A stretch of DNA of 64,000 bases, from contig CBDCYI010000009.1 in NCBI GenBank assembly GCA_965224085.1, positions 802,951-866,950 on the forward strand, read 5' to 3'. This DNA comes from Candidatus Marinacidobacterales bacterium. Its GTDB lineage: Bacteria > Acidobacteriota > Vicinamibacteria > Marinacidobacterales > SMYC01. This document shows, in pieces, positions 38,065 through 63,877 of the stretch (position 1 is its first letter; every line of letters begins with the position of its first letter). The notes under the pieces were generated by a model that had not been told where the DNA came from, did not search any database, and worked only from the letters and a program-made list of their open reading frames with translations. Both the position numbers and the translations under genes were made by a program.

Positions 38065-38289
38065 CGTCCTGTGCAAAAACTCGGCCCTTTTGAAATAGAC
38101 CATAAATCAGCAGCTTAGTGTCTGTGTTTGCGACCGGGCCAAGGGCCGTAGGCTTTACAATCGTCTGGCCCGAGGGTGTTATCTTCAGCTCCATGATGAC
38201 GTACCACGCGCAATTCCTACTGCTCGTTCTAGCTGGCTGGGTCAACCGCCAGCAGCAGGATGTGATCGACTACCTGCAAGAGGAGAACC
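38065..38289 (+). mobile_element. Left end (102-bp TIR plus transposase start) of the long-TIR rve IS, truncated
   Basis: Near-identical to the reverse complement of 57511-57290; [32 protein letters not shown]. Confidence 0.85.
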
Positions 38290-38319
38290 ATTTCCTTCTA
38301 CTGCGATGGCCCGGCTTTA

Positions 38320-38620
38320 TCAACTTGGTTGGGACCGAGCAGTCCTCTCCTTCAAGACGAACACCGGCGGGGCTCGACGCTTCAGTCGCCGAGCGTATTC
38401 CGGCCCGAACTTGATACACCAAAGTCGGATCGTTTCATAGGAAACGGTGATGCCGCGTTGAGCCAGAAGATCCTCGACATCGCGAAAGCTGAAGCAAAAT
38501 CGGTGGCACAGCCAGACCGCGTGGCTGATGATTTCGGGAGGAAATCGATATCCGCGGTAGCTCGGCGTGTCCCTTTTCATCCGCCCAGTCTGTCAGACGC
38601 CAGCTCAATTTGAAAGTACC
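38320..38620 (-). mobile_element. IS6-family 5' fragment
   Basis: GYRFPPEII.HAVWL..RF..S.RDVEDLLA.RGI.VSYETIR.W; IS6-like end GGTACTTTCAAATTGAG. Confidence 0.85.
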
Positions 38621-38694
38621 CCGCCATTAACCCTAATCGCAAATAAACGTCACCGTGTCTGAGGTCTTTGGCCCCGTGAATAGCACCTTTTCAG

Positions 38695-39161
38695 CGAACG
38701 TTCGGTGATGCCGCAGGATACAGGGGTTGGCCGGAACGTCGTTCTGGACGGTTTGGACTTCGCCAGCTTACGGCGGGTCTGGGAGCAGACCTTTGGGGCT
38801 GCTCCTCCAAGCTCGCTCTCGCGTGTTTTCCTGCGCCGCGTTCTCTTGCACGAACGCCAGTGCCGGACCCATGGCGGGCTTTCGGCCGCAACCCGGCGCG
38901 CTCTGGCTGCCATGGCGAACGAGACACCAAGCTCCGGCGCTCCCGCAGGGTCCGTTTCTGCCGGCACCGCTCTGTGTCCATCCTGCTCGACCGCAATGCG
39001 TTCGCTGCTTGCCTCTTTATGGGACCCGAACGCATTCGCGAGGATGCACTCCGCATCCTCGCACCGTTCCGCTTGCGTCGACGCGGCGTCGAGACCAAGC
39101 TTGTTCTGGGCAACCCCACGAAATCCGTCGACCGCACACTCCTGCGCAATATCGCCAACGC
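38695..39161 (+). pseudogene. Fused remnants of a DUF2924-like gene and a recombinase C-terminus
   Basis: LRRVW...FG..PP.SLS..FL...Q...HGGLS..TRR.L, then PFRLRRRGVETKLVL..D.TL...IA.A in another frame. Confidence 0.6.
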
Positions 39162-39430
39162 CGTCCTGTGCCAAAACTCGGCCCTTTTGAAATAGACCAT
39201 AAATCAGCAGCTTAGTGTCTGTGTTTGCGACCGGACCAAGGGCCGTAGGCTTTACAATCGTCTGGCCCGAGGGTGTTATCTTCAGGTCCATGATGGACGT
39301 ACCACGTGCAATTCCTACTGCTCGTTCTAGCTGGCTGGGTCAACCGCCAGCAGCAGGATATGATCGACTACCTGCAAGAGGAGAACCGTGTGCTCCGAGC
39401 CGGGCTTCGGGGCAAGCGTCTCAGGCTCTC
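39162..39430 (+). mobile_element. Second left-end fragment of the long-TIR rve IS
   Basis: CGTCCTGTGCCAAAACTCGGCCC... plus frameshifted transposase start. Confidence 0.85.
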
Positions 39431-39432
39431 GG

Positions 39433-39566
39433 GATTGCGACATCTGCTATTCTTCACTTCGGATTGGCCCTGACGAGGAGAGAACTGTGTCTTCGGAATT
39501 CTGGCTCAAACTCTAGCACGCGAGCGGGTTACGCGGCGGCCACCAACACTTGATGGCGGAAGCACC
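39433..39566 (-). mobile_element. Left end of an IS1-like element
   Basis: Terminus GGTGCTTCCGCCATCAAGTG also at 41898, 41983 and 63936(rc); 39433-39460 matches the start of ORF 41955-42323. Confidence 0.65.
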
Positions 39567-39680
39567 GTACGAGTTCCAATGGGTGGCGATACGGAACAAG
39601 AGAACCCCGGGAAGGCCTTTAATGAACTGGTGCAGTAGGCATATCGATCTGATTGCGGTTCCGCACGCCGGGAGTGAACC

Positions 39681-40850
39681 GTGAGCGGCGCTGCAAGCCA
39701 GGAGGACCTCGCGATCACGCTTGGGGTCGAGGAGGAATTCTTTCTCGTCGATCCCGGCTCCCGAGACCTGCTTGCGGACCCGGACCCCGCCATCTTCGAC
39801 ACCTGCGAGAAGACGGCCGGGCCGCATAAGGTCGTGCGTGAGTTCCTGCGCTCTCAGATCGAGACCAATACCCGCGTGTGTGGGTCGGTGGCCGAGCTAT
39901 CCCAAGCCTTGCGCGAGACCCGACGGATCGTCATTGAGGCGGCCGAGCGACACGGGGCAACAGTGATGGCTGCCTCGACTCATCCCCTCGCATCGTGGAC
40001 GGAGCAGGCACCCACGCCGCAGGAGCGTTACGCAAGGTTCGCGGTCACTTTCCAGGACAATGTGCGTCGGTTCCTCATCTGTGGCATGCACATCCACGCC
40101 GGCTTCGGCAACGCCGATTCACGCATTCGGATCATGACAGCGATCCGCCACTATCTGCCGTTGCTCCATGCACTGTCCACATCGTCGCCGTTCAACGCTG
40201 GGCGAGAGACGGGGTTCAAGTCCTGGCGGCTGACCCTCGTCGGCGGTCTCCCGCGCACCGGAATGCCGGCTCCTCTGCGGTCGCGAGCGGAATATGACCG
40301 GCTGGTTGCTGAGTACCGGCGCATGAAATTCATCAATGATGGCAGCGAGTTGTGGTGGGACATTCGCCCCTCCCACGCCTATCCGACGGTGGAGATGCGG
40401 ATCTGCGATGTTTGTACGCGCATCGAGGACGCGGTGTGCATTGCGGCGCTGTATGCGTCCCTCATTCGGCTACTGATGCGCTGGGACCGGGAAGGTACCT
40501 TGCCGCCGACACCGCTCACCGAAATCATTGCGGAGAACCGCTGGGTCGCCCAGCGCTACGGGGTACTCGCCTTCTTCGGGGATGCGACACGGGAGGACGG
40601 TCGGGTGGATATCGACGATCTTGTTGCCGACCTAGTCGAGGAACTCGCCTCCGATGCCCGCGCACTCGGCTGCGAGGCCGAGACGCGTCGCGCCCTCGCC
40701 ATCATCCGCGAAGGAACTAGCGCCGACCGGCAGGTCGACCTATTTCGCCTGCGCCGCCTGGAGGGGGACACCAAGGAGGAGGCGCTCCACAGCGTGGTCG
40801 ATCTGCTGCTAGCCGAGACCCGAAAGGGGCTCGGACAAGCGTCTCGTTGA
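39681..40850 (+). CDS. ybdK: Carboxylate-amine ligase YbdK (glutamate--cysteine ligase 2 family)
   Basis: TLGVEEEFFLVD, QIE, THP, GMHIH, SSPF, WWDIRP..YPT.E.R.CD. Confidence 0.9.
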   Translation: MSGAASQEDLAITLGVEEEFFLVDPGSRDLLADPDPAIFDTCEKTAGPHKVVREFLRSQIETNTRVCGSVAELSQALRETRRIVIEAAERHGATVMAASTHPLASWTEQAPTPQERYARFAVTFQDNVRRFLICGMHIHAGFGNADSRIRIMTAIRHYLPLLHALSTSSPFNAGRETGFKSWRLTLVGGLPRTGMPAPLRSRAEYDRLVAEYRRMKFINDGSELWWDIRPSHAYPTVEMRICDVCTRIEDAVCIAALYASLIRLLMRWDREGTLPPTPLTEIIAENRWVAQRYGVLAFFGDATREDGRVDIDDLVADLVEELASDARALGCEAETRRALAIIREGTSADRQVDLFRLRRLEGDTKEEALHSVVDLLLAETRKGLGQASR

Positions 40851-40907
40851 TCCGCGCGGGACCTGAGAAATAGGAGTTGTTGCCTCACTACAACCTTGAG
40901 CGAAGCC

Positions 40908-41182
40908 CGTCCTGTGCCAAAACTCGGCCCTTTTGAAATAGGCCATAAATCAGCAACTTAGTGTCTGTGTTTGCGACCGGGCTAAGAGCCGTGGGCTTTA
41001 CAATCGCCTTGGGGGGCGGGTCGTCACCATGCAGATGACCACCTAGTCCCCTGGGTCTTTGCTTACTATACAAAGTTAGGCTTTTCGCCAGCCCATAAGA
41101 TTCATAAGATTCATGCACTTAGAATGGTTTCGGCAAGCTCTGCTTTGTCTAGTTGTTTCTGATACATAGGACTAGTCGAGAG
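40908..41182 (+). mobile_element. Right-end fragment of the long-TIR rve IS carrying the 125-bp mini-element
   Basis: Matches the copies at 48473 and 53796 through ...GATGACCACCTAG. Confidence 0.85.
41047..41171. mobile_element. 125-bp AT-rich mini-element (MITE-like), orientation A
   Basis: Flanked by CTAG at 41043-41046 and 41172-41175; diverged reverse complement of 53936-54060. Confidence 0.85.
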
Positions 41183-41581
41183 ACTACCTCCGACCGATGG
41201 AAGCCATAAATCCTTCAGAATAAGACCCTTCCACGCCCCATGTGGAAATCGCTGTGGAAAACTCGGGCTCGGGATGCCAGATCCGCGCAAGTCCCGGCCC
41301 TCATTGAACTTTATCGAAGCGTCTCGGATTAGATTTTGTGGAAAATACGGTCCTCAAGCGATGGCTTCTCAGGCGAAACTACCCGTTGGTCGAATAAAGT
41401 GTGGCTGGCCCGAGCGGGCCGTTTCAGAGCCCATGATTACGACGGCGAGAAGGCGCAAGCCTGCCTGGGGCTTGACGCAGGACTTCATCGTCGATGCCAT
41501 CGGCCGCTACCAGACCAATGAGCGGAGAAACATGGGAGTAGACCGGCCTCTCGACATCACGCAGACCAGCGCAAAACCATC

Positions 41582-41735
41582 TTATCGTTGCTCGACAAAC
41601 ACCACTGCCTGGGCACGCACCGTGGGGGCGCGCAGGTTTCCCGTTGGCCCTACAAGCGCGTCCACGATTTCCTTGGACGCCTTCCCGCCGGGAAAGCTTT
41701 GGACTTTCTTGCCCTTGGCAACGATGACTTTGGTC
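41582..41735 (-). pseudogene. ArsC/thioredoxin-like family fragment
   Basis: VAKGKKV...LVGPTGNLRAPT.R motif. Confidence 0.5.
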
Positions 41736-41809
41736 TAAACCGCACAATCAACGCTGGATCGACTTTTTGCGGAGCACAGCCGCATGGATTCCCTTTCGAG
41801 CGGCCCGGA

Positions 41810-41897
41810 TCGCCCGGTTATCTTTCTATCCGAATAGGGCCGGGATGAGACGATTGCGAGGGCCTTGGAGCTCGGAGCCACCGATTACGTCGTCAAA
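41810..41897 (+). pseudogene. Response-regulator receiver fragment
   Basis: PVIFLSE*GRDETIARALELGATDYVVK. Confidence 0.6.
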
Positions 41898-41982
41898 GGT
41901 GCTTCCGCAATTAAGTGTTGGCGGCCAACCTCTAACCCCGTCCTGTGCCAAAACTCAGCCCTTTTGAAATAGGCCATAAATC

Positions 41983-42323
41983 GGTGCTTCCGCCATCAAG
42001 TGGTTGAATCGACGACACACTTGGGCTGCCTTCTCGAGCCAGCGGGCGACGGTGTTCCAGGCAATCCCTTCGATCCGAGAAATCGAGGAAATGCTGACGC
42101 CCTCGACTCTGAGAGCGATGACCCCATCGAAAGTAGCTCTTCGATGTTGGAGACGGTAGTAGGGCGTGCCTTTCGTCGAGGAGAACGTCTTTCCGCACTC
42201 GCCGCACCGGTATCGACGGCGTTTCCCGGACCTGGTTCGGTAGAATCCGTGGCGAACGATGTTTCCGGAACTGACTTTGCCCCGCAACGGACATGCGAGA
42301 TTGAGACATCTGCGATTCTTCAC
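41983..42323 (-). mobile_element. IS1-family InsA-like fragment (zinc ribbon plus HTH) abutting an element terminus
   Basis: C.N..C, RHG, RYRCGECGKTFS, G.SI..I.R......NTV.RW. Confidence 0.75.
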
Positions 42324-42352
42324 TTCGGCTCGGCTGTGCCTTCTATTTATAC

Positions 42353-42510
42353 ATCCGCGTGATGGAGATCACGGATATACTCAGCCAGAACGTGCCCCTG
42401 GAGGACGTGCAGTATCTGGCCGGGACACTCCAACCCCTCGGGCCACACAGATCTATGACCGGCGTAGACAGCACGTCACTCGCAACATCGTGGAGCGTGT
42501 CTCGATATGA
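42353..42510 (+). pseudogene. Tyrosine recombinase C-terminal fragment, frameshifted
   Basis: ITD.L.Q.VPLEDVQYLAG(H)...TQIYDRR...VTRNIVERVSI. Confidence 0.7.
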
Positions 42511-43061
42511 AAGAAGGACCAAGGAAGAGAGACATCCTTTCGAGGCCTGCTAGCAAGAAAGCCGCTGCACGGCCTCGTTCGGCTCCCCGCAATGAACCCA
42601 AGCCGGTGCCGGTTCCTCTGCCCGAAGGTGTCCGCTACCAGCGGGTGGGTGAAACGACGGAACGTTCCGCGCATCTCGAAAAACTCAAACAACTCTTCGA
42701 GGCGGCTCCGATCAGCCGCTACCTGGGCATGACACTCAGCTATTGCGAGAACGGCGTGCGCGTGCGTTTGCCGTTTCGGGCCGAGTTCGAAGAAAGTCAT
42801 GGCGTCATCCACGGGGGTCTCATCGGTCTGCTGGCGGACACGGCGGGGAACTTCGCGGTGGGTTCGGTCTCGCCGGGCTCCACGGTCAAGACGGTGGAGT
42901 TCAAGATGAGCTTGCTGGCGGGAGTCCAGGGAGACCTGCTCGCCATCGGAGAGGTCGTCCGCAAGAGACGCACGCTCGCCACCTGCCAGCTCGAGGTCGT
43001 TGGGGGCAACGACCATGTGGCGGCCATCGGGCTGGCCACTTATGCCCTCCAGGCTGTTTAG
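42507..43061 (+). CDS. PaaI-family thioesterase
   Basis: HGVIHGG.I..LADT, TVEFK..LL hot-dog fold. Confidence 0.85.
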   Translation: MKEGPRKRDILSRPASKKAAARPRSAPRNEPKPVPVPLPEGVRYQRVGETTERSAHLEKLKQLFEAAPISRYLGMTLSYCENGVRVRLPFRAEFEESHGVIHGGLIGLLADTAGNFAVGSVSPGSTVKTVEFKMSLLAGVQGDLLAIGEVVRKRRTLATCQLEVVGGNDHVAAIGLATYALQAV

Positions 43062-43159
43062 CCCCTAGACCAAAACGTGCTAGCCCGCTAAGCCGCGCGC
43101 TAGCCCCGGCCTCGATTCTGGATCTGTGCCTTCTATTTATTGGGAATTATAAGAAACGA

Positions 43160-43188
43160 TTGACAAGGCACCCGTGATCGTGTATTCT
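43160..43188 (+). promoter_or_regulatory. Sigma70-type promoter of the IS1595 transposase, probably leaderless
   Basis: TTGACA-N17-TATTCT, 6 bp before the ATG at 43195. Confidence 0.65.
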
Positions 43189-43194
43189 ACGATC

Positions 43195-44175
43195 ATGATG
43201 ACGCGATACAACTCCCCAGGGCGAGGGCACCGGGAAGGCATAACCGTTGTTCAGCTCATGGACATGTTCCCGACCGATGAAGCGGCAACCAAATGGTTCG
43301 AGGCTGCAATCTGGCATGGCACTCGGTGCTGCGGACATTGCGGTAGCCTCAGCACCAGCGAAGTCCCGAACGAAAAGCCGATGCCCTACTGGTGCTCCAC
43401 CTGCCGGAGCTACTTCAGCGTTCGCACGGGCACCCCTATTGCCCATTCTAAGATCGCGCTCCGCAAATGGGTTATCGCCATCTACCTCTGCTTGACTAGT
43501 CTCAAAGGCGTCTCGAGCATGAAGCTCCACCGAGACATCGGCGTCTCACAGGCCGCGGCTTGGTTCATGCTCCATCGGATTCGAGAAGCGTGGAGCGGTC
43601 CTAACGGCAAATCGTTCGCCGGGCCTGTCGAGGTAGACGAAACCTTCTTCGGCGGGAAGGCTCGCAACATGCAGCACGCCCACAAGCGCGAGCAGGCTAT
43701 TAAGGGCCGAGGATCCGCAGGGAAGACGGCCGTCATCGGCGCGAAGGACCGCCGGACGAACCGTGTCAGCGCCGAGGTCATCGGCAACACCGACCAACCG
43801 ACGCTCCAAGGCTTCGTCGCGAAGAATGTCGATCCTAGCGCGAAGCTCTACACCGACGACCACAGAGGCTATGTCGGTCTACCCAATCACGAGACGGTGA
43901 AGCACAGCGTCAAAGAGTACGTCAACGGAATGGCGCACACCAACGGGATTGAGAGCTTCTGGTCGATGCTCAAGCGGGCGCACAAGGGGACGTTCCACAA
44001 GATGAGCCCCAAGCACTTACAACGCTACGTTAATGAGTTCGCTGAGAAGCACAACATCCGCGACCTAGGAACTCTCGACCAAATGCTCGACACCGTCGCT
44101 CGGCTTGTCGGACACCGACTTCTCTACCGTGACCTCGTCGCCAAGAACGGGCTCAGTTCGATGGCGAGGTCGTAA
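43195..44175 (+). CDS. IS1595-family (ISXO2-like) transposase, apparently intact
   Basis: Zinc ribbon CCGHC...YWCSTC, KGVSS.KL.R, VEVDETF, YTDD, HTNGIES.W. Confidence 0.92.
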   Translation: MMTRYNSPGRGHREGITVVQLMDMFPTDEAATKWFEAAIWHGTRCCGHCGSLSTSEVPNEKPMPYWCSTCRSYFSVRTGTPIAHSKIALRKWVIAIYLCLTSLKGVSSMKLHRDIGVSQAAAWFMLHRIREAWSGPNGKSFAGPVEVDETFFGGKARNMQHAHKREQAIKGRGSAGKTAVIGAKDRRTNRVSAEVIGNTDQPTLQGFVAKNVDPSAKLYTDDHRGYVGLPNHETVKHSVKEYVNGMAHTNGIESFWSMLKRAHKGTFHKMSPKHLQRYVNEFAEKHNIRDLGTLDQMLDTVARLVGHRLLYRDLVAKNGLSSMARS

Positions 44176-44252
44176 GGGACTCAGCAACGCGCGGGCCAAT
44201 CTCTCCGGCGTGGCGCCGGCCAGGTCGCGCTCGGGGATGATCATCGGTGGTC

Positions 44253-44570
44253 TCATAGCTTCACCTTGATGTTACCGACCCGGTCCTCTACGCGTTCGAG
44301 CCGCTTATCCATCTTCTCGGTCCTACGGCCAATGAGGTCTAGCTTCTGACCGAATACTCCAAAATTGTGCTCAAGGGTGCTGAACCGGTGACCCATCGCG
44401 TCGAGCTTTGACGACAGCCCGTCGATTTTACCCGACACTTTTTCGATGTCGTCGATTATCTCTCCTTGCCTGAACCCGTACTTCTCGTCGAGCCTCGTCA
44501 CGATTGCTCGGCGCGCGGGGGCACTTGCCGAGATCACGCGATCAATGGGCCGCGGAGCTGGACAACGCAA
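44253..44570 (-). CDS. Coiled-coil hypothetical protein, possible IS1595 passenger, 5' end uncertain
   Basis: Heptad-like repeats; ATGA coupling to the small ORF 44065-44256. Confidence 0.4.
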   Translation of the reverse strand: MRCPAPRPIDRVISASAPARRAIVTRLDEKYGFRQGEIIDDIEKVSGKIDGLSSKLDAMGHRFSTLEHNFGVFGQKLDLIGRRTEKMDKRLERVEDRVGNIKVKL

Positions 44571-44613
44571 TCGCGAGGGACCCCAGCAATCGACGCGCAG
44601 CGACTAAACTGGC

Positions 44614-45663
44614 TCAGGCGGCGTCGCGCCATTCGTAGCGGTGGTGGAGCCCACCCACTCGCGGCAACGCGACGACTTTTGCGGTCGGTGATGGTCGGGG
44701 CGTGACGGGTCTTGAGTTCGGGGTGTTTTTGTCGAGACCCAAGTGGCAACGGTCCTCGTGGTAGTAGCTGATGTACAAGCGCATGAGCCGGACGAGATGC
44801 CGCTCACTGAGGACAACTACATGCTCTAACATCTCGCGGCGGCAGTTTCCGATCCAGCGTTCGGCGGTACCGTTTTGCCAAGGGCTGCGATAAGAAATGC
44901 GAACAGGCTTTGCGCCCATGGCCCTGATGAACTCCACCACTGCAGGGCTGAAAATCGCGTCGCGGTCAAAGACCAAGTATCGTGGTGCCGTGTCGTATGG
45001 GAACGCCTCGCGCAGTTGTTGAATCACCCACGCTGACGTGGGGTTGTACGTCGCGTTGAAGTGCAAGATATGGCGACGGCCGTGCTCGATGACGAAGAAG
45101 CCGTACAGCAGCCGTAGCGACGCCGTCGGTACGGCGAACAGTTCCATCGCGGCGATGTCGTCCTTGTGGTTCCGCAAGAACGCAATCCATCGCTTCACTT
45201 CGTCGGGTTCGGCTCGGCGGCGCGGCATGTATCGCGACACCGTCATCTCGCTGACAACGAATCCGAGCTTCGTCAGCTCAGCGTGGATACGAGGTGCACC
45301 CCAGCCGTCTTGGGCCATCGTGCGGACGAGACGACGAATCTCGGCATCAATCCGAGGTCGACCTGGATAGCACGGACGGGAGATCCGAGCCCAGTATCGG
45401 CAGAACCGATCTCGATTCCACCGGGCGACCGTGTCGGCGTTCACGATAACGAGCCGGCTCGCCCACGCTGGCCACGAGCTTCGGAGCGCAACCCAGAATG
45501 CTCGGTCCGTGTCCTCGAGCGGTGGCCGGGGGCGTTCCTTCTTCAACGCCGTAACTTGCTGCCGCAGGGCCAGGTTTTCAATCACGAGGTCGGCTCGGCA
45601 CCGACACATCGTCCGGATCGCACGGGCGCCGAGTGAGACAAGGAAGATGAGGACACGGAGCAT
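44614..45663 (-). CDS. rve/integrase-core DDE transposase
   Basis: ENLALRQQ, WGAPRIH.EL, DRD..F, SPWQNG.AER, RCH.GL.K.TP, GGLHH.Y; terminus-like CTGTGCATCATCAATATCC at about 45783(rc). Confidence 0.9.
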   Translation of the reverse strand: MLRVLIFLVSLGARAIRTMCRCRADLVIENLALRQQVTALKKERPRPPLEDTDRAFWVALRSSWPAWASRLVIVNADTVARWNRDRFCRYWARISRPCYPGRPRIDAEIRRLVRTMAQDGWGAPRIHAELTKLGFVVSEMTVSRYMPRRRAEPDEVKRWIAFLRNHKDDIAAMELFAVPTASLRLLYGFFVIEHGRRHILHFNATYNPTSAWVIQQLREAFPYDTAPRYLVFDRDAIFSPAVVEFIRAMGAKPVRISYRSPWQNGTAERWIGNCRREMLEHVVVLSERHLVRLMRLYISYYHEDRCHLGLDKNTPNSRPVTPRPSPTAKVVALPRVGGLHHRYEWRDAA

Positions 45664-45783
45664 GGCGGCAGAGTTTGCCGTCTCAAGACCGGGATCTCAA
45701 GCGGAAGATGCGCTCGTTGCCCGAGGCGTGAACGGTGCGTAAGTCCTTGATTTCAGGAGCGGACGGATATTGATGATGCACAG

Positions 45784-45986
45784 GCAATCCCGACCTCTGC
45801 GAGCCAGTCGGCCAACTGGTGTAGGTCGCCCGTGAAGCTTCGAAACGTCCGCACGGACATCTCGACCCGCTCCGGTGGGACCGCAACCACATGGAATGTC
45901 GCTCCGATGTCGATTCCTGCGGCGTTAACGTGGATGGACGTAATGGATCGTCTGGACGACTTCCGACGCTTCCTTCTTGTCATCAT
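45784..45986 (-). pseudogene. IS110-family recombinase N-terminal fragment
   Basis: AAGIDIG...HVVAVP...VRTF..FT.DL..LADWL; GGAGG RBS. Confidence 0.85.
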
Positions 45987-46199
45987 TCCTCCTTCCGGAT
46001 TAAACCCGAAAGGAGGGATGGGCGGAAGTTCATCATTTTCCTAAACGGGATCGCCAAATGGCGCCACCACTGTCAAGTCCGCAGCCACCCCCGGACCATG
46101 TTTTTTTACGGGATCGAAATCACCAGTAAGCGGACGGCCTCTCCTCTCGAGTAGCCAAGAGGGTAGCCGTCAGCGAGTTTCTGGTTCAACAGGAGGCGC

Positions 46200-46690
46200 G
46201 CCCGCGCTCGAAGGTTTTTTTGGATCTCCAACATCGTCTCCACCCGAGCCAGCCGACGTTGGAGTCGGGCGTTCTCGCGCTCGAGCTCCTTGACTCGTGG
46301 ATCCTCTGCCTTCGCCTTCCGGCCTCGCTTTCTCGATGTCAGCCCCGCTTTGGCGATCTCGTCACGTTGGCGGCGCCACCTCGATAGATGCGACGAGTAC
46401 AGGCCCTCTCGACGCAGAAGAGCAGCAACATCCCCGTCACCCTTGCAGGCATCGGCCTCGCGCACTATCCGCAGCTTGTACTCCGCGGTAAAACGTCGAC
46501 GCTTCGCTTGCTCACTCACTTCGGGATCCTCGACCCCCGCCGCATCGCGGCCGGCGGGATCTCCAGTCGCCCTACGGGCTCCTTCCGATCCCGCCGAGGT
46601 CTCTCTCTCTAGCAAAATACTCATGCGTTGATCCTCCTCCGCCCTCTACACTAATTTCAAGGGGCGAAGTGTCTCAGCGATGTTGGCACA
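46200..46690 (-). mobile_element. IS3-family left end plus orfA, truncated after the A7 slip site
   Basis: RRRFTAEYKLRI..EAD.C...G...ALLRREGLYSS.L..WR, IQK(A7); end TGTGCCAACATCGCTGAGACAC. Confidence 0.8.
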
Positions 46691-46760
46691 GAGGGCTGGG
46701 CCTCGGCGTTCGGCGTGTATCCGGTGCAAATCACGCAGTGGAAGGAGCAGGCGCTGAGGT

Positions 46761-46816
46761 TGTGATCCGCAAGAAAGAAGATCGCGTACCGCTGGATCGA
46801 CTTTTTGCGGAACACA
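46761..46816. repeat. 56-bp mini-element bounded by inverted repeats
   Basis: TGTGATCCGCAAGAAAG...CTTTTTGCGGAACACA; single ends also at 41753-41778, 62572 and 63789. Confidence 0.65.
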
Positions 46817-46896
46817 GGCAACATCGCGTGATGAACTTGGTGCAGATGTCGCGTTTCGAGAGGCTTCGCTTGTCTATTCTGCTTTGGATCGACAGA

Positions 46897-48261: not shown

Positions 48262-48344
48262 GCGCCAGATTCTAGCAGTCCTGTGCGCTCAGGTGGACCC
48301 ATCGCGTCCAAAAACACAAACGAACTCAAGACCCACGCGCCGGG

Positions 48345-48472
48345 ACGTTTCGCATCGGTCAGGCGCAAGCAACCCTGGACCTGATTTCGAAGAACTCGAT
48401 TCTCGGCCACAAGATACCCGTTGCGCAGGAGCAATTCCTCATCCACTGACCCTGAGATGTAGCCCAGCATGG
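48345..48472 (-). pseudogene. N-terminal fragment of another rve-type transposase
   Basis: LGYISGSVDEELLLRN.YL.AENRVLR. Confidence 0.55.
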
Positions 48473-48951
48473 CGTCCTGTGCCAAAACTCGGCCCTTTTG
48501 AAATAGGCCATAAATCAGCGACTTAGTGTCTGTGTTTGCGACCGGGCCAAGGGCCGTGGGCTTTACAATCGTCTTGGGCGGGCGGGTCGTCACCATGCAG
48601 ATGACCACCTAGTCGAGAGCGAATATCCAAGCGTGTTCCTGAAGCTGTTTCCACGCTACGCCGGTCGAGCCCGCCGAAGGGCTACCGTCGCCGGCGACCA
48701 TCTACGCGGCACGGCAGTAGTAGTTGAGAATGCCCCCAAGTCGCTCTCGCGACACGATGGGGCCAGCGTCATTCGCGCTTGTCGGCAGAGGTGTGAGGAG
48801 CTCGTTGCCGAGACCTTGGCGGTTCCGTTCTGTGTGATAGTGCACTACGTATTCGGTTACCGCTCGCTCACTAAGAGGTACGAAGCGGTCGAGACACTCT
48901 CGACGTATGGAGAGAACGAATCTTTCCGCGTATGCGTTCAGATTCGGACTA
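48473..48951 (-). mobile_element. Right end plus transposase C-terminus of the long-TIR rve IS (empty CTAG allele)
   Basis: [18 protein letters not shown]...[11 protein letters not shown]; single CTAG at 48609-48612. Confidence 0.88.
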
Positions 48952-52952: not shown

Positions 52953-53138
52953 GTCACATAACCCTTCGCGGGAAGTGTGCAGGAGCGCGTAGTGCGGGAA
53001 AGCCGCACGCTGCGTGCGATGTGGCGGGGGCTGGAAACGGACTTACGGTGCGGCTAGTGAGGCACTCCCACAGGAAACGGGGAGAAACAGATAGGCCGCG
53101 CCTACGGAGCACCGCGCTAGCCCTCGACCCTACCGGGA

Positions 53139-53460: not shown

Positions 53461-53603
53461 CTCAGGGTCGAATTGATGACTGGGTCAGACTTTGCCAGGC
53501 GAACTGGATGAAGCACCTGTATCGCGGCCTCTTCCTGCCGATACCGGGTGCGAACGGGCGTCTTCAGCAACCGCTCCAAGAACCACAAGCTGTCTGCCTC
53601 GAC

Positions 53604-53780
53604 GGCTGGATGACCCTAACTCAAGCGGCCGCCTATCTTGGCGTCTCTGGCAGCGCCCTCCGGGCACAGGGTCGAATGAGGTGAGCTGAAAGCCATGCAT
53701 CCGCTGCCTGATGGACCTTGGGTTCTTAATAGGCAACAACTTGATCAACCGGGTGTTCGCAAGGTTATCGAGAGGATCCG
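53604..53780 (+). repeat. Degenerate duplicate of the serine recombinase 3' region
   Basis: Near-identical to 56158-56332. Confidence 0.9.
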
Positions 53781-53935
53781 CCTGATCTGATACCCCGTCC
53801 TGTGCCAAAACTCGGCCCTTTTGAAATAGGCCATAAATCAGCAACTTAGTGTCTGTGTTTGCGACCGGGCCAAGGGCCGTGGGCTTTACAATCGTCTTGG
53901 GCGGGCGGGTCGTCACCATGCAGATGACCACCTAG

Positions 53936-54060
53936 TCCCCTGTAGCAGAAAAAACTAGACAAAGCAGAGCTTGCCGAAACCATTCTAAGTACATGAATTT
54001 TATGAATCTTATGGGCTGGCGAAAAGTCTAATTTTGTATAGTAATCAAAGATCCAGGGGA
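53936..54060. mobile_element. 125-bp mini-element, orientation B
   Basis: TCCCCTG...CAGGGGA ends, flanked by CTAG at 53932-53935 and 54061-54064. Confidence 0.88.
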
Positions 54061-54295
54061 CTAGTCGAGAGCGAATATCCAAACGTGTTCCTGAAGCTGT
54101 TTTCACGCTACGCCGAGCGGGCCCACCAAGGGGCTACCGTCGCCGGCGACCATCTACGCGGCACGGCAGTAGTAGTTGAGAATGCCCCCAAGTCGCTCTC
54201 GCGACACGATGGGGCCAGCGTCATTCGCGCTTGCCGGCAGAGGTGTGAGGAGCTCGTTGCCGAGACCTTGGTGGTTCCGTTCTGTGTGATAGTGC

Positions 54296-56431
54296 TCGGC
54301 AACACAGTGCCCACAATCGCGAGTTTCTTGAACTCCACTATCCTTGGCATCCGCTCCACGGACGTAGGATTCTCGTCCGCGGCCGGCGAAAGTGGGGCAA
54401 GCACACAGCCGTTCGCTTCACGGTAGAAGACGAACCGCAACGAGTCTGGACCGAACTTCCGGTCTGGATGTTTGACCGTGCCGTCTGTTCACGGATGCGT
54501 TTGACTGACCGACCCCGCGTTCATTGGAAAGCCTTGGTAGAACTTAGGCAACTGCTGGACGAGACGGTGTGTGCGCCTCCGTTGGCAAGGGTACAAGATC
54601 AGCAGTCGGGATTGGCAGAAGCTGGTGGAAGTGTGTCGAGTGGTCGACACTCTTCTTATCGATCAGGAGACGATCTACGATTCTCGCCGCGGTAACGACA
54701 GGTTGCTTCTAGGATTGAAAGGCAGTCTCAACGAATACGAGCTCGATATCCTAAGGCTTCGCGCCGTAGAGGCTCGTCACGAGAAGGCGCGACGTGGAGA
54801 GTTGGTCGTCATAAGGTCTGCTGGCTATATCACGACCGACGAAGGCATCGTGAAGGAGCCAGACCGCCGTGTCCAGCGGACCATAGGATTAGTGTTCCAA
54901 AAGTTTCTCGAGCTTGGCTCAGCCCGCCAAACCTTGCTGTGGTTCATCGAGCACGGTTTAGAAATCCCTGTGCGCGAGTATGGCACAACGGGCTGGGAGA
55001 CCGTATGGAAACGCCCCACCTACCAGCTGGTAATACGAATTTTGCAGGACCCGATCCACGCGGGCGCCTACACCTACGGCAAGACCGAAGTAACGACTGA
55101 GTTTGAGAGTGGAGTCGCTCGCAAGAAAATCAGGCGAAAACCGAAAGAAGAGTGGCTTGCTTTGCTCTACGATCACCATGAGAGCTATATTGCTCGCGAA
55201 GAGTTTGAGCGGATCCAAGAGATGATCTCAAACAACGCTCAATGGCCGAACGGCCCTGGACCTGGAGCAGCAAAAAAGGGGCGAGCGCTCCTGTCGGGCT
55301 TGCTGCGGTGCGGGCGTTGCGGCCGCAAGCTGATGGTGGTCTACACGGGCCGGAACTGCGACGTTGCGCGCTACATGTGTGGTCGGGGAGCGCTGAACAA
55401 TGCGGAAGCTCGTTGTATCAGTTTCGGAAGTCAGCCAGTAGACGATGCTGTAGCCGGTGAAGTGCTCCGGGTGATCGAGCCTGGTGCCATAGAGGCAGCG
55501 ATGCTCGCACAGCGAGAAGTTGCTTGCGAGCAGGATGACGTCGTCGAAGCGCTGCGTCTGGACCTCGAGGCAGCACGCTACACAGCGGAGCGCTCTTGGA
55601 AACAATACGATACCGCTGACCCAGCAAACCGCCTGGTGGTTGATGAGCTGGAAAGACGGTGGAATATCGCACTCGAAAAATTTCAAGAGCTCGAAGATAG
55701 GATCACGCAACAGGAAGCTCAGCGAAAGCAAGTGGTGGCGCCGGACCTGAAGGTTTTCGAACAGCTAGCCGAAGATCTCGGTCGCGTATGGAGTGATCCA
55801 GAGACGGACGTCCGGCTGAAGAAACGCATCGTTCGTGCGCTGATTGAAGAGGTGATTGTCGACATCGACCGAACAATCGGTGAAACCTCACTCGTGATTC
55901 ATTGGAAAGGCGGCACGCACACTGAATTGCGCGTACCGATTCGTCGCCGCGGGCAAAACAGTCTCCATACGTCAAAGGACATCGTCGATGCGGTACGAAC
56001 TCTGACGCTGGTTTGTACTGATGATGTCGTAGCAGCTTACCTGAACCGTAACGGCCTACTCACCGGTCGTGGAAACCGCTGGACCCGAGAGAGAGTTGTT
56101 TCCCTTCGAAATAAGCGCGGGATCGCTAAGTATTCACCCCGACGGCAAGAGGCAGAAGGCTGGATGACCCTAACTCAAGCGGCCGCCTATCTTGGCGTCT
56201 CTGGCAGCGCCCTCCGGCACAGGGTCGAACGAGGTGAGCTGAAAGCCATGCATCCGCTGCCTGATGGACCTTGGGTTCTTAATAGGCAACAACTTGATCA
56301 ACCGGGTGTTCGCAAGGTTATCGAGAGGATCCGTCAGAATCGGAACCCCGCATCGCAATCACTCGAACAACGAACCCTTTTTGAAACAACAACATGACAT
56401 GATGAGGCAGTATGAAACGTCATTCTAGTGC
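54296..56431 (+). mobile_element. Large-serine-recombinase element with small accessory ORF, integrated into the rve IS
   Basis: TAGTGC duplicated at 54290-54295 and 56426-56431; single copy in the uninterrupted allele near 48838; accessory frame HYPWHPLHG...LP.WMFD. Confidence 0.8.
54571..56397 (+). pseudogene. Large serine recombinase lacking its catalytic N-terminus
   Basis: SRDW..L.EVC, NDRLLLGLKG.L.EYEL, LLSGLLRCGRCG zinc ribbon, C-terminal HTH; no Y.R.S motif. Confidence 0.8.
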
Positions 56432-57565
56432 ACTACGTATTCGGTTATCGCTGTCCGCAGGTGTCGCTCATTGAGAGGTACGAAGCGGTCGAGACACTCT
56501 CGACGTATGGAGAGAACGAATCTTTCCGCGTATGCGTTCAGATTCGGACTATTGGCGGGAAGGCGGAGGGGCTTCACGCCTGAATCTCTCAACAGCCCAC
56601 GTACTGCCTCGGTGAATAGCGGGTCCCGGTCGTGGATGAGGTATCGCTTGCCAAGGAGGAACCCATCCCACATGTCCGTGAGGTTTCTTGCCACCTGCTT
56701 CATCCACTCCCCGTTGGGGTCCGAGGTCATCCCACCGATGCACACGCAGCGAGTGGCGATATCGATGACAAACAGGACATGGTAGCGGACGAGCCCGAAC
56801 GGGTTCACCCACCTCGACGGTGAACAGGTCTGTCGCAGCGATAGCGCCCCAATGAGCCTTGAGGAAGGTGCTCCACGACATGCTCTTGCCCCGCTCCGGA
56901 GCCGGCGCGATACCGTGCTCGGCGAGGACCCTCTTGATGGTGTTGCGTCCGAGTTCATGTCCGAGGTTCTTGAGTGCGCCCCGCAGGCGCGTATATCCCC
57001 ACGTCGGGTTCTCTCGCGCCACGCGCACAATGAGCTCACGGATATCCTTCGCCGTCGGAGGTCGGCCTGGGCTCCGGTTCTTGCTGCCATCGTACTTGGC
57101 TGCGATGAGGTAGCGGTACCAGCGCAGAAGCGTAGCGGTACCAGCGCAGAAGCGTAGCGGGTGTGGCAACGGACGCAATCTGGGCCAGCGCCTCGCGGCC
57201 TAAAGCCTGGGCCTTGACCGCGAGCCTGCGCCGGTCGTCGTCCGAGAGCTTGAGACGCTTGCCCCGAAGCCCGGTTCGGAGCACACGGTTCTCCTCTTGC
57301 AGGTAGTCGATCACATCCTGCTGCTGGCGGTTGACCCAGCCAGCCACAACGAGCAGTAGGAATTGCGCGTGGTACGTCATCATGGAGCTGAAGATAACAC
57401 CCTCGGGCCAGACGATTGTAAAGCCTACGGCCCTTGGCCCGGTCGCAAACACAGACTCTAAGCTGCTGATTTATGGCCTATTTCAAAAGGGCCGAGTTTT
57501 GGCACAGGACGGGGTCTTCGTTTCGTGTTTGCTAGTCGAGCATCGGTGACTCGTTCCCCTCGCCG

Positions 57566-58231
57566 CTACTGCGTGATATAGGGCTTGAATTCCTCTTCGT
57601 TGCGCAGCTTTTCGACGATTCTCTCGGCTTCGTCCCGAGTCGCAAAACGACCCACACGCACCCGGTGGAGCTCCGCTTCGCCTCCCGCTTCCAGATAGGC
57701 GCGGTAGTTCTTTCTCTTCAGCCGCGAGAGAAGGGCCCGAGCCGTCCCTTCCGTCCGGAGCGCCACCACCTGAATGCTGAAGGTGCCGCTGTCAAGGCCG
57801 AACTGCTGGGGCCTTCTCGGTGCCGGAGCGGCCGGCGCCGGGATATCCCGGGCAGGGGCTTTCTTCGGGGTTGGAGTCGGCGGCGAAAAGGTCTGGTTCA
57901 CCGTCGCCTCGGGGCTCGTCCATCGCACCGGATCGAGTTTGGCCTCGGGTTTCTCCTCCTCAAGACGCTGGGCGTAGTCGCGTTTCGGAGTTCCAGCGGA
58001 TACCGTACGACGGCTGTCAGGGATCTGGCGACGCGTGCCGACCGCGATGTACTTTCCTGGAACCGCCAAGGTGGCGTTCCGGACTCCACGTCCGACCATC
58101 ACCTCACGTCCGACCATCGCGCCGCACAGGAACACGACTACGGCAATTGCCAGGGTCGCCATGAAAAAGAAGACCAACAGCTTGTTGTTCAGTTGGACCG
58201 TGTAATAGGCCCCGTCGTCATATTCGGCCAT
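57566..58231 (-). CDS. SPOR domain protein (FtsN/DedD-like)
   Basis: TM anchor, Pro-rich linker, FSIQV.AL...A..L...L, HRVRVG.F....A. Confidence 0.85.
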   Translation of the reverse strand: MAEYDDGAYYTVQLNNKLLVFFFMATLAIAVVVFLCGAMVGREVMVGRGVRNATLAVPGKYIAVGTRRQIPDSRRTVSAGTPKRDYAQRLEEEKPEAKLDPVRWTSPEATVNQTFSPPTPTPKKAPARDIPAPAAPAPRRPQQFGLDSGTFSIQVVALRTEGTARALLSRLKRKNYRAYLEAGGEAELHRVRVGRFATRDEAERIVEKLRNEEEFKPYITQ

Positions 58232-59784: not shown

Positions 59785-59943
59785 CGTCCTGTGCCAAAAC
59801 TCGGCCCTTTTGAAATAGCCGTCCTGTCCAAAAACACAAACGAACTCGAGACTGGCGCGCCGGGACGTTTCGGATCAGAGACGTCTGAGCCTTGGTTGGC
59901 CAATGGAAGCTAGAATCCTCGGTCATGAGGAGGCAGAGCCAGC

Positions 59944-61132
59944 TGTCCCTTCCATAAACTCGAGCTGCGTGAGATTAGCGAGCTGCCTGCAACCAGGATG
60001 CTTGGGTCGTCTTCATGTAGGACGTTTCGAGGATCGGCGTCGGCTCTACTCAGGGGTATAGGTGTAAGCTGGCGCGAAGTCCCGTAGCCGTCCCGAGCGG
60101 ATCGGCTCAAGCAGCGGCGTGTCGAGTGTAATAATGATGGAGACCACCGACCTTTGGAATGGCTCTCACTTTGCCCATCGCCGGTGACTCTACCCGGCGA
60201 GGCTCAGGCGCGTCCTTCTCAAGCGACAAATGAGTCCGGCACGAATGATAGTAGTCGACGTATTTGCGTAGGATTCGCTTCAGGTGCCGCTCATCAAGGA
60301 CGATCACGTGGTCGAGACACTCACGTCGAATGGAGCCGATCATCCTTTCGACGAATGGATTCTGCCACGGGGAGCGCGGTGCGGTAAGGACCTGCTCTAT
60401 CCCAAGACCGTCGACGCGACTATCGAAGTACGCTCCGTAGGTCTGGTCTCGGTCCCGTACCAGGTACCGAGGCGCCGTGTCCCATGGAAAAGCATCGACC
60501 ATTTGCTGCGCCGTCCACTCGGCGGAAGGATGCTCGGTGACATTGAAATGAACGATACGGCGACGCTCGTGGCGAAGGACGATGAAGACGAACAGAACTC
60601 TGAAGGTTGCGGTCGGCAAAGTGAAAAAGTCGAGCGACACCAAGTCCTTTGCATGATTATCGAGAAAGCTCCGCCAAGTATGGGACGGCGGGGTGCGATG
60701 GCGAACCATATACTTGGAGACGGCTGCCTGGGAAATGGAGATGCCTAGCTTCGCCAGCTCGCCATGCACGCGGGGAGCTCCCCAGAGAGGGTTGGCCCTG
60801 CTCATGTCCCGAATCAGCTCACGTATTTCGGGAGCGACGCCTGGTCGTCCGGGCCTACGCCGTCGGCTCTTCCAAGTCCAATATCGTCTGAACCCACAAC
60901 GGTGCCAGCGGATGACCGTCTCAGGTTTCACGATGACGAGGACGCTCTCCCAGTCAGTCCAGATTCTGCGCAATAGCACCCAAAACCCGCGACATTCTCG
61001 AGAGCCAGCTCGCGACGAGCCTTGAAGGTAGAGATGAGAGCGCGAACCAACGACGAAATCATGCCGGCATGGTGCCGGCAGACCGGAGATTAATCAAGTT
61101 CGGGGCGCGCGGATGAATAAATAGAAGGCACA
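59944..61132 (-). mobile_element. Second rve-type IS with TGT...ACA ends; transposase 61062-60107 has an N-terminal deletion or frameshift
   Basis: Ends TGTCCCTTCCATAAAC / TGTGCCTTCTATTTAT(rc); [34 protein letters not shown]. Confidence 0.82.
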
Positions 61133-61388
61133 ACCGAAATCAAGCTGTCGTGTGATAGATTCTTGGGTCCGGAAACCGATGCAACGTGTCCACGGGCTTG
61201 AGAAATGCCAGGAATTTGAGAGGTTTCAATGAAAGACAATAAAACGATTGCCGAGCTGACATCGGAGTTGGTGGCACAGGTGGAGAAGCTGCTGCATAAG
61301 CTAGTTCCACGAATCACCGCTGTTCTTGCTGAGCCGGAGGCTCGATGATTAAGTCGAAACCCTCGGCCAGAGCGGGGAAGCTCGGCTC

Positions 61389-61643
61389 GGCAAACGAAAG
61401 TGGCACACAGAATCGGGCTACAGCAAACGGAGCAAAGTCGAGACAACGTTCCATCGCTACAAGGCTATCGTGGGCTCAGCAATGCGAGCGAGAGGGCTGG
61501 CGGCACAGAGAGTCGAGGCAAGGATCGGGTGCAAGATTCTCAACACGATGACGGCGCTCGGGATGCCTGATAGCGAGATGATCGGATGATGGGAGTCGGG
61601 GCCAAGCGAGTTCTCGGCCTCTATCGGAGTTGTGCACCAAGGC
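61389..61643 (+). mobile_element. IS903-group 3' fragment with right end
   Basis: W...SGY.KRS.VET...RYK...ILN.MT.LGMP; GTGCACCAAGGC end. Confidence 0.8.
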
Positions 61644-62133
61644 AGCAGATCTCCGGCCAGGATGGCCCAGAATGAGCGGCGGTGAGGTGATGTTCCACTA
61701 CACCCTATCAACCTGCCACACAGAGAAGACGCCACGCTCGGATGTACGACTCGAGATGCTGGCCGCATTGCGTTCTACCGTCGAGGTAGCCATCGGTGGC
61801 AAGGCGGTGCCATTGCCAGGATTCCCCTATTACGCGCTCAGCATCAGGAACACCTGGACCGGCGCGGTGGGCTGGCTTCTCGAGGGAGCCGAGCGGCGCG
61901 TCTTGGTTCGTTGCGTGACCGCCTGGACGGGCGGGGGCGTGACGAAGGGCTTGGCCTGGTTGGCGGCGACACTACCGGCGGATCTGGCTCTAGAGTTTCC
62001 CTGCTGTCTGGTCAAGCCTGGAGTAGCATTCCTTAAGGATTCCGGCGCGGCTAGTTGTCTTGATGACGCGGAACGTTGCATTAGCTGGGCGCTCGTCGAT
62101 GCGAGCGCGCCCGACCCCGAGACGGCGGCCTGA
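61630..62133 (+). CDS. Hypothetical protein, start uncertain
   Basis: Open frame only; no recognised motif. Confidence 0.3.
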   Translation: MCTKAADLRPGWPRMSGGEVMFHYTLSTCHTEKTPRSDVRLEMLAALRSTVEVAIGGKAVPLPGFPYYALSIRNTWTGAVGWLLEGAERRVLVRCVTAWTGGGVTKGLAWLAATLPADLALEFPCCLVKPGVAFLKDSGAASCLDDAERCISWALVDASAPDPETAA

Positions 62134-62309
62134 TTCGAGGCCAGGGTGGGTTGTCCATCATCATTACTAGTCCGGGACTGGACTCTAGGGCCCGGACCGC
62201 CCTTGAGCACATGCTGGAGAGCGTGGTCAGCGCGCGAGGGAAGGTGCTGAGGACGAACTTCTCGGCGACCAGCCGAGTTAACGCGAGCGACCAAGCTGAC
62301 TCAGGCTGC

Positions 62310-62527
62310 CTGTCCCTTCCATAAACTTGAGCTGCATGAGATTGTCAAACTGCCTGCAACCAGGACGCTCTGGTCATCTTCATGTAGGACGTTTTGAGAG
62401 CCGGCGTCGGCTCTACTCAGGGGTAGAGGTGTAAGCTGGTGCGAAGTTCTGCAGCCGTCCCGAGCAGATCGGACTCAAGCAGCGCGTCGAGTGTAATAAT
62501 GATGGAGACCACCAACCTTTGGAATGG
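62310..62527 (-). repeat. Duplicate right end of the 59944-61132 element
   Basis: Homologous to 59943-60163; cut at the repeat terminus at 62528. Confidence 0.85.
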
Positions 62528-62666
62528 CGTCCTGTGCCGAAACTCGGCCCTTTTGAATGGTTGGAGAAGATTGTGATCCGCAAAAAAGGAAGAACGCGTA
62601 TCGGCGGGCAGAAGAAAACGCCCCCGATGCCGACACCCCATTAGACTGGACTTTGCGGCGCAAAAG

Positions 62667-62795
62667 AGCGAACGTCGGGTGATGCTGAAGGATACAGGGG
62701 TTAACCAGGAATGTCGTTCTGGACGGTTTGGACCTCGCCAGCCTGCGGCGGGTCTGGGAGCAGACCTCTGGGGCTGCTCCTCCACGTTCGCTCTC
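62667..62795 (+). pseudogene. Second DUF2924-like 5' fragment
   Basis: Homologous to 38695-38820. Confidence 0.65.
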
Positions 62796-62816
62796 AAGCG
62801 CGAGAGGAACTAATAA

Positions 62817-63702
62817 ATGCCGTCCGATTCGGAAGACCGGAACATCGAGCAGCCGGAAGAAAGTGCGGTTTCCGAACCCGTCCTGACGGACGATGGCAAG
62901 TCCCTCCGGCATTGGCTCCTCGTCCCTGCCGGAGTCGTCGGGATTGCTTTTGTCGTGGGAATCGTCCTGTACTTTCTCCTTACTGGCGGAGGTATCGACG
63001 AGGCTCCCGACGCACTCGAGGCGCCGACGAGCACCGTGGCAGAGCCGGCTGCGCCACCGTCCGGCGAGACGGGAGCTCTACCCGAGGCGACGCCGATCGT
63101 TTTGCCACCGCTGTCCACTAGCGATGACTTCGTCCGCGCGATGGTCGAGAAGCTCTCCGCACATCCCGTGCTGGCGTCGTTTGTGGTGACCGAGCAGCTC
63201 GTTCGCAAAGCGGTGGTCGTGGTGGCCAACGTTGCGGAAGGGCTCAGCCCGGCTCGTTTGTTCCCGCATCTACGACCGGAGGAGCGGTTCGAGGTCGCCT
63301 CCCACTCGGGCCGACTCGTCATCGACGCGGAGAGCTACCATCGATATAACACGTACGTCGACCTCCTCGTTTCCCTCGATTCTGCTGGCCTCGTCGAAAC
63401 GTACCGCAATGTGAGACCCCTGATCGACGAGGCGTATCAGGAACTCGGCTACGGCGAGCAGCCATTCGAGGACGTTCTGACCATGGCCTTCGCGGTCGTT
63501 CTGAAAACACCCATTGTTCGGGGTGATATGGCCGGTCGAGACAGTAAGCGTCAACTACACTTACTCCGAGCAGTGGATCGAAGACCTCCCGCCCGTTCAG
63601 AGACAGCTTCTTCGCATGGGACCGGACAACGTCCAGCGGATCCAGGTGAAGCTACGGGAGATCGCGGTCGAGTTCGGTCTTCGTCTGCCCGCCGAGGGCT
63701 GA
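62817..63702 (+). pseudogene. DUF3014-like protein, frameshift near 63535
   Basis: LPPL..SD, SY.RY, PL..EAY.ELGY in one frame; Q.QLLRMGP.N...I..KLRE in another. Confidence 0.75.
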
Positions 63703-63877
63703 GCCCGCTCCCGGCAGGTGTTTACTCACTGAATATTTATATCCTTAAATCTAATTCAATCAGGACTCTGGCGGACAGCCAGTTAGGCTGTGATCCGCAA
63801 AAAAGCAGATCCCGTCCTGTGCCAAAACTCGGCCCAGCCGGCATCGACGAAAGAACTGCGCCTCTCGAAATCAGGCG

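Follow-up and report, generated by a model that had tools for sequence, protein, structure and literature searches.

Nested insertion and partial deletion as a probable source of one-sided transposon tips in a mobile-DNA-rich region of an uncultivated acidobacterium

Insertion sequences (ISs) of the IS481 family are compact elements of about 1.2 to 1.4 kb with termini of the form TGT...ACA. A single unframeshifted open reading frame (ORF) encodes a transposase that combines a helix-turn-helix (HTH) region with an rve-type DD(35)E core, with a basic residue at E+7; DD(35)E is the signature of IS3/IS481 and the integrase group. Target duplications in the IS481 family are given as 2 to 15 bp, mostly 6 bp (PMC10045372). 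Here we analyse a stretch of 64,000 nucleotides from a Candidatus Marinacidobacterales bacterium (assembly GCA_965224085.1, contig CBDCYI010000009.1), hereafter the window, which corresponds to G000:C9:802951-866950 in our numbering of genomes and contigs; contig C9 is 866,950 bases long, and the right edge of the window coincides with its end. A first-pass annotation had described an IS, here called IS-A, whose terminus recurs in this window almost always in the same direction, and had proposed repeated one-ended insertion or directional deletion that assembles the region piece by piece. Our results suggest instead that the one-sided pattern is probably the product of nested insertion and later partial deletion, that is, of ordinary decay in a junkyard of mobile DNA.

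IS-A shares the size range, coding arrangement and transposase architecture of the IS481 family. Its transposase matches the IS481 model best among NCBIfam models (NF033577; 99.3 bits, E=2.8e-28, profile positions 16-280 of 284), and a TGT motif lies near its end. It differs in that this score is below the curated cut-off of 224 bits and in its lineage-specific 102-bp inverted repeats. It apparently also differs in that the TGT occupies bases 6-8 of the element as delimited here, which starts CGTCCTGTGCC, and not base 1 onward, and in that no direct repeat of any length flanks 11 of 11 intact relative copies (1427-1445 bp). The second-best model is that of the IS3 family (NF033516; 84.3 bits against a cut-off of 160), whose members, such as IS911, transpose by copy-out-paste-in and have the same catalytic signature. 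IS911 inserts beside end-like sequences, and the targets of IS-A are likewise often tip-like to the right of the insertion point (NGTC or NGTA after CC). IS-A has one ORF, however, and not two with a -1 frameshift, and no 3- to 5-bp target duplication is seen. With IS630 as the only other NCBIfam model matched, and with sub-threshold scores for both IS481 and IS3, the transposase is placed by neither the curated NCBIfam nor the Pfam libraries; to that extent the earlier description of a poorly described rve family is supported.

The IS30 family prefers palindromic targets and makes very short target duplications, which would fit the AYCC...GGGT flanks seen here, but no IS30 family model is among the NCBIfam matches of the IS-A transposase at E<=0.001. 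Copies of one IS30 family member, ISApl1 of Tn6330, are lost while remnants stay, as at this locus, and a study of that transposon explains this by abortive copy-out transposition (PMC5821093). The ISApl1 deletions are about one IS long, whereas the inner endpoints here range from 23 to 1102 bp. One-ended transposition in the Tn3 and IS91 families (e.g., IS801) also yields one exact and one variable end. The transposases of those families are of other types: IS-A has only rve_3 and HTH domains and the model matches named above, and neither a Tn3-type DDE nor an HUH rolling-circle domain was found in its transposase with NCBIfam and Pfam. The one-ended products of those families also carry donor DNA beyond the element, and none is seen here.

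The tip of IS-A, taken as the 23-mer CGTCCTGTGCCAAAACTCGGCCC, is present at ten places in the window, nine on the '+' strand and one on the '-' strand (seven exact, three with one mismatch), just as the first-pass annotation had recorded; none of 100 dinucleotide shuffles of the window contained a match. Across the genome there are 93 sites with at most two mismatches. The 23-mer is probably the tip that the transposase of an rve-type DDE insertion sequence family recognizes. When the sequences inward of the ten tips are aligned, three belong to the transposase-start side of IS-A (left inverted repeat, IRL; 38065, 39162 and, reversed, 57511), three to its other end (right inverted repeat, IRR; 40908, 48473 and 53796), and four are alike over 23-44 bases only (41939, 59785, 62528 and 63813). 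Six of the ten sites are IS-A ends. The earlier view of one IS truncated at variable lengths fits five loci only (38065, 39162, 40908, 48473 and 53796-57511); the tips at 59785, 41939 and 62528 are short stubs, and that at 63813 belongs to another class, so that the pattern of variable truncation is partly an effect of pooling different elements. The '+' tips of the long fragments comprise two of IRL type and three of IRR type, which means that the polarity records the surviving side of each copy and not the orientation of the element.

A wider set of tips shows the same mixture. From all 116 genomic sites of a 16-base core of the tip (63 '+', 53 '-') we read 260 bases inward. The IS-A repeat is one of the recurring classes; another class diverges after 23 bases into AGCCGGCATCG... 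and has five copies with the same junction, including that at 63813, and further classes diverge after base 54, right behind a motif that resembles a binding site for integration host factor (IHF). Small two-ended derivatives measure 113, 134, 180 and 437 bp. The tip is thus common to IS-A, to its sister element IS-B, to several non-autonomous derivatives of 113-437 bp, MITEs included, and to other repeat classes. In the window IS-B lacks its far end, which is replaced by a 147-bp unit (60989-61135) that closes with an IS1595-type repeat. The coordinates of the window's features are collected in the table.

Table. Tips, elements and element fragments in the window (MITE, miniature inverted-repeat transposable element; RT, reverse transcriptase).
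Feature	Position	Strand	Remarks
IS-A fragment, IRL side, positions 1-225	38065..38289	+	alignment, BLAST
IS-A fragment, IRL side, positions 1-270	39162..39432	+	within DUF2924-type repeat unit
IS-A fragment, IRR side, positions 1428 to about 1280	40908..41184	+	MITE inside
44-bp tip stub	41939..41982	+	followed by IS1-like transposase gene fragment on - strand
IS1595-type element	43133-44507		
IS-C (further rve element)	44508-45784		
Degenerate IS-B-type tip with some 170 bp of IS-B-like end	48300..48472	+	cut by tip at 48473 (nested)
IS-A fragment, IRR side, positions 1428-938	48473..48951	+	joined to M28 peptidase 5' gene fragment
Group II intron	50633-52665		RT and maturase ORF 51160-52563
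Full-length IS-A with two inserts, 3716 bp	53796..57511	-	only complete tip pair in window
34-bp tip stub	59785..59818	+	IS-B tip directly behind
IS-B sister element	59820..60991	-	transposase about 30% identical to that of IS-A; tip CGTCCTGTCCAAAAACAC
30-bp tip stub, one mismatch	62528..62557	+	in IS-B-like interior fragment 62310-62527
'Class B' repeat end: 23-bp tip and about 100 bp of other repeat	63813..63942	+	not truncated IS-A

Several of these features lie inside one another. The IS-A tip at 48473 breaks off an IS-B-like end that starts at 48300 and runs for about 170 bp; the IS-B tip stands 34 bp behind the start of the stub at 59785; and the tip at 62528 lies within an IS-B-like interior. 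An older rve transposase gene is interrupted by the tip at 38065, whose left flank is the C-terminal piece of that gene, a DUF2924 repeat unit by the tip at 39162 and a serine recombinase gene by the tip at 53796. The neighbouring genes that the first-pass annotation described as cut are mostly genes of other mobile elements (the rve fragment, the DUF2924 unit, the serine recombinase and an IS-B-like copy). The copy at 53796-57511 is the one complete pair in the window, as had been stated. It holds a 125-bp MITE (53936-54060) with CTAG on both sides and a 2130-bp segment (54296-56425) with a 5'-truncated large serine recombinase gene, bordered by a 6-bp repeat of IS-A positions 1058-1063. Its transposase frame is broken, and its two outer flanks do not fit one target. 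The MITE in the 40908 fragment (about 41049-41175) lies at the same CTAG site in the opposite orientation.

Nested insertion with later loss would account for the one-sided tips as follows. IS-A is an autonomous 1428-bp element whose inverted repeats have grown to 102 bp. Between 38 and 64 kb, members of its family have inserted into one another together with MITEs, a group II intron and other ISs of five or more kinds. Each '+' tip would be the left boundary of a real insertion, which would explain why it is exact and lies on a preferred AYCC half-site. The right-hand parts would have been lost later, through insertions of other elements and a few deletions or rearrangements. The family membership of the tips, the mixture of classes, the nesting, the balance of directions across the genome and the variety of the breaks are shown by the data; we infer how many deletions there were and in which order they came. 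As the elements are nested, one rightward deletion from an inner element would strip the right ends of all those around it and leave a stack of stubs pointing in the same direction; some right-hand partners may lie past the contig end. A striking one-sided pattern can, in other words, come from nesting and a few deletions. Taken so, the locus matters little beyond recording the decay of an IS family in the IS-saturated genome of an uncultivated acidobacterium.

The break points are as heterogeneous as the tips. The break partners of the 20 listed terminal fragments include ends of other ISs (e.g., TGTGCTCCGCAAAAA..., or TGTGCCTTCTATTTATT... of an IS1595-type repeat) as well as plain junctions, and two of these fragments carry the 125-bp MITE with its CTAG flanks. 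A BLAST search of the assembly found no complementary right-hand fragment for any window stub, and no fragment starting at IS-A position 226, 271, 937 or 1286 or thereabouts, so the partners have been deleted or lie in unassembled sequence. Ordinary decay also agrees with the G002 counterpart of the 38065 copy, which has lost other parts of the element and, again, its right tip. It is conceivable that the nesting is intact, like a Russian doll, with the right-hand ends surviving past the contig end in unassembled repeats. The window does stop where contig C9 stops, the assembly consists of 12 contigs with the end of C5 duplicating the start of C9, and completeness is 95%. We consider this reading very unlikely, given that the complementary fragments are absent throughout the assembly and that the sequence after most breaks is no known element terminus.

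Genome-wide, the tips point equally in both directions. At up to three mismatches, and with the duplicated contig end (C5 end = C9 start) removed, this genome has 87 tips, 46 '+' and 41 '-'. Eleven '+/-' pairs lie within 4 kb, and the remaining 65 tips are solo (35 '+', 30 '-'). In G002, a complete single-contig genome of the same genus, 208 tips are forward and 208 reverse. The directional polarity proposed for the element does not survive this random orientation. Neither do the several tip classes, the heterogeneous breaks and the nesting agree with repeated one-ended insertion or directional deletion building the region piecewise; such assembly is unsupported, though possible for a minority of junctions. 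Arrays of IS26-like translocatable units were ruled out, as IRL and IRR ends occur side by side among the '+' tips, which places the copies in both orientations. A common element between outward-facing tip pairs was likewise ruled out, no shared sequence being found. With respect to a replication-linked polarity, GC skew in the window mostly reflects foreign segments.

A number of observations weigh against nested insertion with random deletion as the whole explanation. All eight solo tips in the window are '+', and with the IS-B-type tips at 48300 and 59820 added the window has 11 of 12 tips in that direction. Solo tips along the genome form 28 runs where 35.3 are expected (sd 3.9; 20,000 shuffles; one-sided P=0.039), so some local clustering of their direction is real, though weak. 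For the four consecutive tips from 38065 to 41939, nothing in the DNA between them demonstrates that one element lies within another. No related genome has a match across the break at 38290 or that at 39432. The latter joins GGATTGCG... to IS-A position 270; elsewhere this repeat boundary directly touches family tips at C4:56010 and, in G015, a sister element's end. Junction 39432 would fit a deletion that ended exactly at a transposon terminus; its endpoint, 0-3 nt from the tip-abutting boundary, hints at a role for the transposase and not at random deletion.

Such a role would be general if decay were driven by the transposase itself, with abortive copy-out-paste-in or single-end integration deleting the element from an internal point and leaving exactly one terminus. 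Alternatively, insertion might proceed tip first with a variable inner end, so that solo ends are a product of the chemistry of the family, and a polar process such as replication might set the local direction of the tips. Besides the 39432 junction and the non-random runs, the loss of IS copies by abortive transposition, reported for ISApl1 (PMC5821093), speaks for this possibility. So does the copy at 38065. G002 has it at 99% identity, together with 850 bp of its left flank; the G002 counterpart retains IS-A 1-251 and 736-1270, likewise without a right tip, and has decayed independently, one ancestral copy having lost its right tip in two genomes. We nonetheless think decay of this kind unlikely. 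That all inner breaks end at the other terminus was ruled out: the endpoint falls at a known tip boundary in just 1 of the 20 listed terminal fragments, and the one other 'GGAT' partner, which appears twice because of the duplicated contig end (C5:2287710 = C9:3806), marks where a 1.1-kb IS ends. Tip totals are balanced in two genomes, the polarity mixes IRL with IRR ends and several element classes, and the variable ends lack the donor-flank DNA that one-ended transposition predicts.

It is also possible that some break junctions are chimeric, joined at repeats during assembly of this metagenome-derived genome. The extreme copy number of these repeats, the duplicated contig ends and the breaks at 38290 and 39432, with no spanning match in any related genome, would fit such an artefact. 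Logan contigs from four of 15 public runs, examined over 37900-57800, end at repeat borders and bridge no IS-A break, which is neutral evidence; runs labelled sponge metagenome contained about a fifth of the words, from which we draw no conclusion on habitat. An assembly origin is nevertheless highly doubtful: an independent assembly contains the junction of flank and tip at 38065 with 99% identity, and similar solo tips are abundant in complete single-contig relatives.

The flanks of the tips are strongly biased. Among 88 distinct flanks in this genome, position -4 is A in 62, position -3 is C or T in 76, position -2 is C in 76 and position -1 is C in 70; the genomic frequency of CC is 0.072. 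In the 11 intact relative copies, CC precedes the left tip in 10 and GGG follows the right tip in 8. The preference is palindromic, of the form AYCC...GGGT, and the displaced sequence, as seen for flanks in repeats with uninterrupted copies, often starts with the tip-like NGTC or NGTA. The absence of a visible target duplication, which had been noted earlier, was borne out: as in the intact relatives, no direct repeat occurs at any of the 11 paired elements of this genome. No empty site was found when both flanks of these 11 elements and the flanks of 18 relative copies were searched in this genome, nor when the left flanks of three loci (L007, L010 and L055) were searched in 5, 5 and 3 other genomes, respectively. 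These searches, and two candidate places that were read, gave only repeat-family matches that continue differently. As no empty site with both flanks was found, the absence of a duplication has three possible causes: it may be genuine and typical of the family, the palindromic tip may hide a CG duplication of 2 bp, or recombination among the many copies may have shuffled the flanks.

Exactly one intact copy of IS-A is present in the genome (C5:1887074-1888501), and its 1428 bp agree with the 1.43 kb reconstructed in the first pass; all other BLAST segments, out of 168, are fragments. Its two ends, previously said to be alike over about 102 bp, are identical at 95 of 102 positions. With the start taken at MMTYH the single ORF encodes 356 amino acids, in which Pfam recognizes rve_3 (E=1.6e-10), HTH_32 and HTH_21. 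In an alignment of 15 transposases, which took in two sister sequences from the window (28-29% identity), D246 and E279 do not vary, D178 hardly does, and R286 lies at E+7. A PDB sequence search with the transposase gave no match, and the 1428-bp element had none among PLSDB plasmids in distant mode. The IHF-like motif is equally real: AATCAGCARCTTA in the IS-A repeats fits the IHF consensus WATCARNNNNTTR, and this pattern has 9 matches in the window against 1.24 expected, 6 of them inside IS-A repeats. IS-C, a 29% identical sister, has the pattern too (45740-45752), about 33-45 bp in from its right end, and a putative bend site at that distance from the end may be common to the group.

Relatives of IS-A were encoded by 472 of 497 candidate stretches in species-representative genomes, and 7999 of 8000 scored proteins had E<=1e-10; they are named only as 'transposase' or 'InsO family'. 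Records titled Candidatus Marinacidobacterales contain close copies, with identities of 83-98% (91-98% for most), and records titled Myxococcota, Planctomycetota, Gemmatimonadota, Verrucomicrobiota and others contain relatives with identities of 54-66%. The 11 distant elements that we measured are 1206-1387 bp long (eight of them 1206-1247 bp), with inverted repeats of just 13-24 nt and a related tip, CGTNNTGTGCCAAAAC in most. Since the 102-bp repeat is restricted to the close clade in this comparison, it is a lineage-specific extension and not a trait of the family. Two by-products may interest specialists. One is the set of near-identical gene modules described below; the other is a very large, generically named transposase clade, whose scores stay under the curated cut-offs of IS481 and IS3 and which combines a lack of visible target duplication with a strong, symmetric preference in its flanks. 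A more ambitious proposal is that IS-A and its relatives form an undescribed clade beside IS481 and IS3 in many uncultivated phyla, which integrates without target duplication at palindromic AYCC/GGRT sites mimicking its own ends and from which abortive transposition removes one terminus at a time. If this were true, solo ends and same-direction runs would be the signature of a mechanism and not of random decay; we regard the proposal as quite unlikely.

The surrounding DNA is a mosaic. Besides the elements in the table, the window holds gene fragments of IS1-like, IS1380-like and IS3/IS66-like elements, two partial serine recombinase genes and several MITEs. Between the elements lie short gene modules that are unique in the genome (GCS2, thioesterase, M23 peptidase, an M28 fragment, a SPOR protein and a DUF3014 protein). 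Segments in other genera, other families and an order-level relative match several of them at 99-100% identity, which indicates very recent exchange; module 39430-40890 is 100% identical to its counterpart in G015. The modules at 39430-40890 (GCS2 ligase), 46862-48461 and 48948-50085 (M23, M28) have different neighbours on both sides in other genomes. The M23 and M28 modules each have one constant boundary across genomes, and the M28 fragment joined to the 48473 copy has the identical endpoint (48948) in two of them. Synteny with G002 stops at 37753, beyond which that genome has a different junkyard of its own.

The group II intron interrupts the region upstream of a serine recombinase gene, and contigs of all four public runs examined, like G002, have the join 50632>52666 without the intron. 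The MITEs at 53936-54060 and about 41049-41175 (TCCCCTG...CAGGGGA) are 92% identical to each other, against 97% for the surrounding IS-A; their opposite orientation at the same CTAG suggests two independent hits on one hot site. A 276-bp unit at 38693-38968, which overlaps a DUF2924-like N-terminal coding piece and has constant ends, is repeated dozens of times, with 93-100% identity, in three related genomes. A repeat core of about 95 bp (..AAACTCTAGCACGCGA.CGGGTTACGCGGCGGCCACCAACACTTGA..), at 39474-39573 and 63845-63942, has 13-14 copies in the genome, upstream of different genes and beside family tips.

The 17-base terminus TGTGCCTTCTATTTATT opens three units: a 730-bp thioesterase-bearing unit at 42335-43063 that is multi-copy in relatives, the IS1595-type element at 43133-44507, and the 147-bp unit at 60989-61135, of which this genome has at least 15 copies. 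Elsewhere in the assembly, C5:2287688-2302205 and C9:3784-16852 carry the same series of tips and fragments, owing either to a large duplication or to overlap in the assembly. The most active element of this genome by a wide margin is a different IS of roughly 1.5-2.2 kb, found from C4:43023 onward and in more than 60 other places as 98-100% identical copies, often in overlapping tandem matches.

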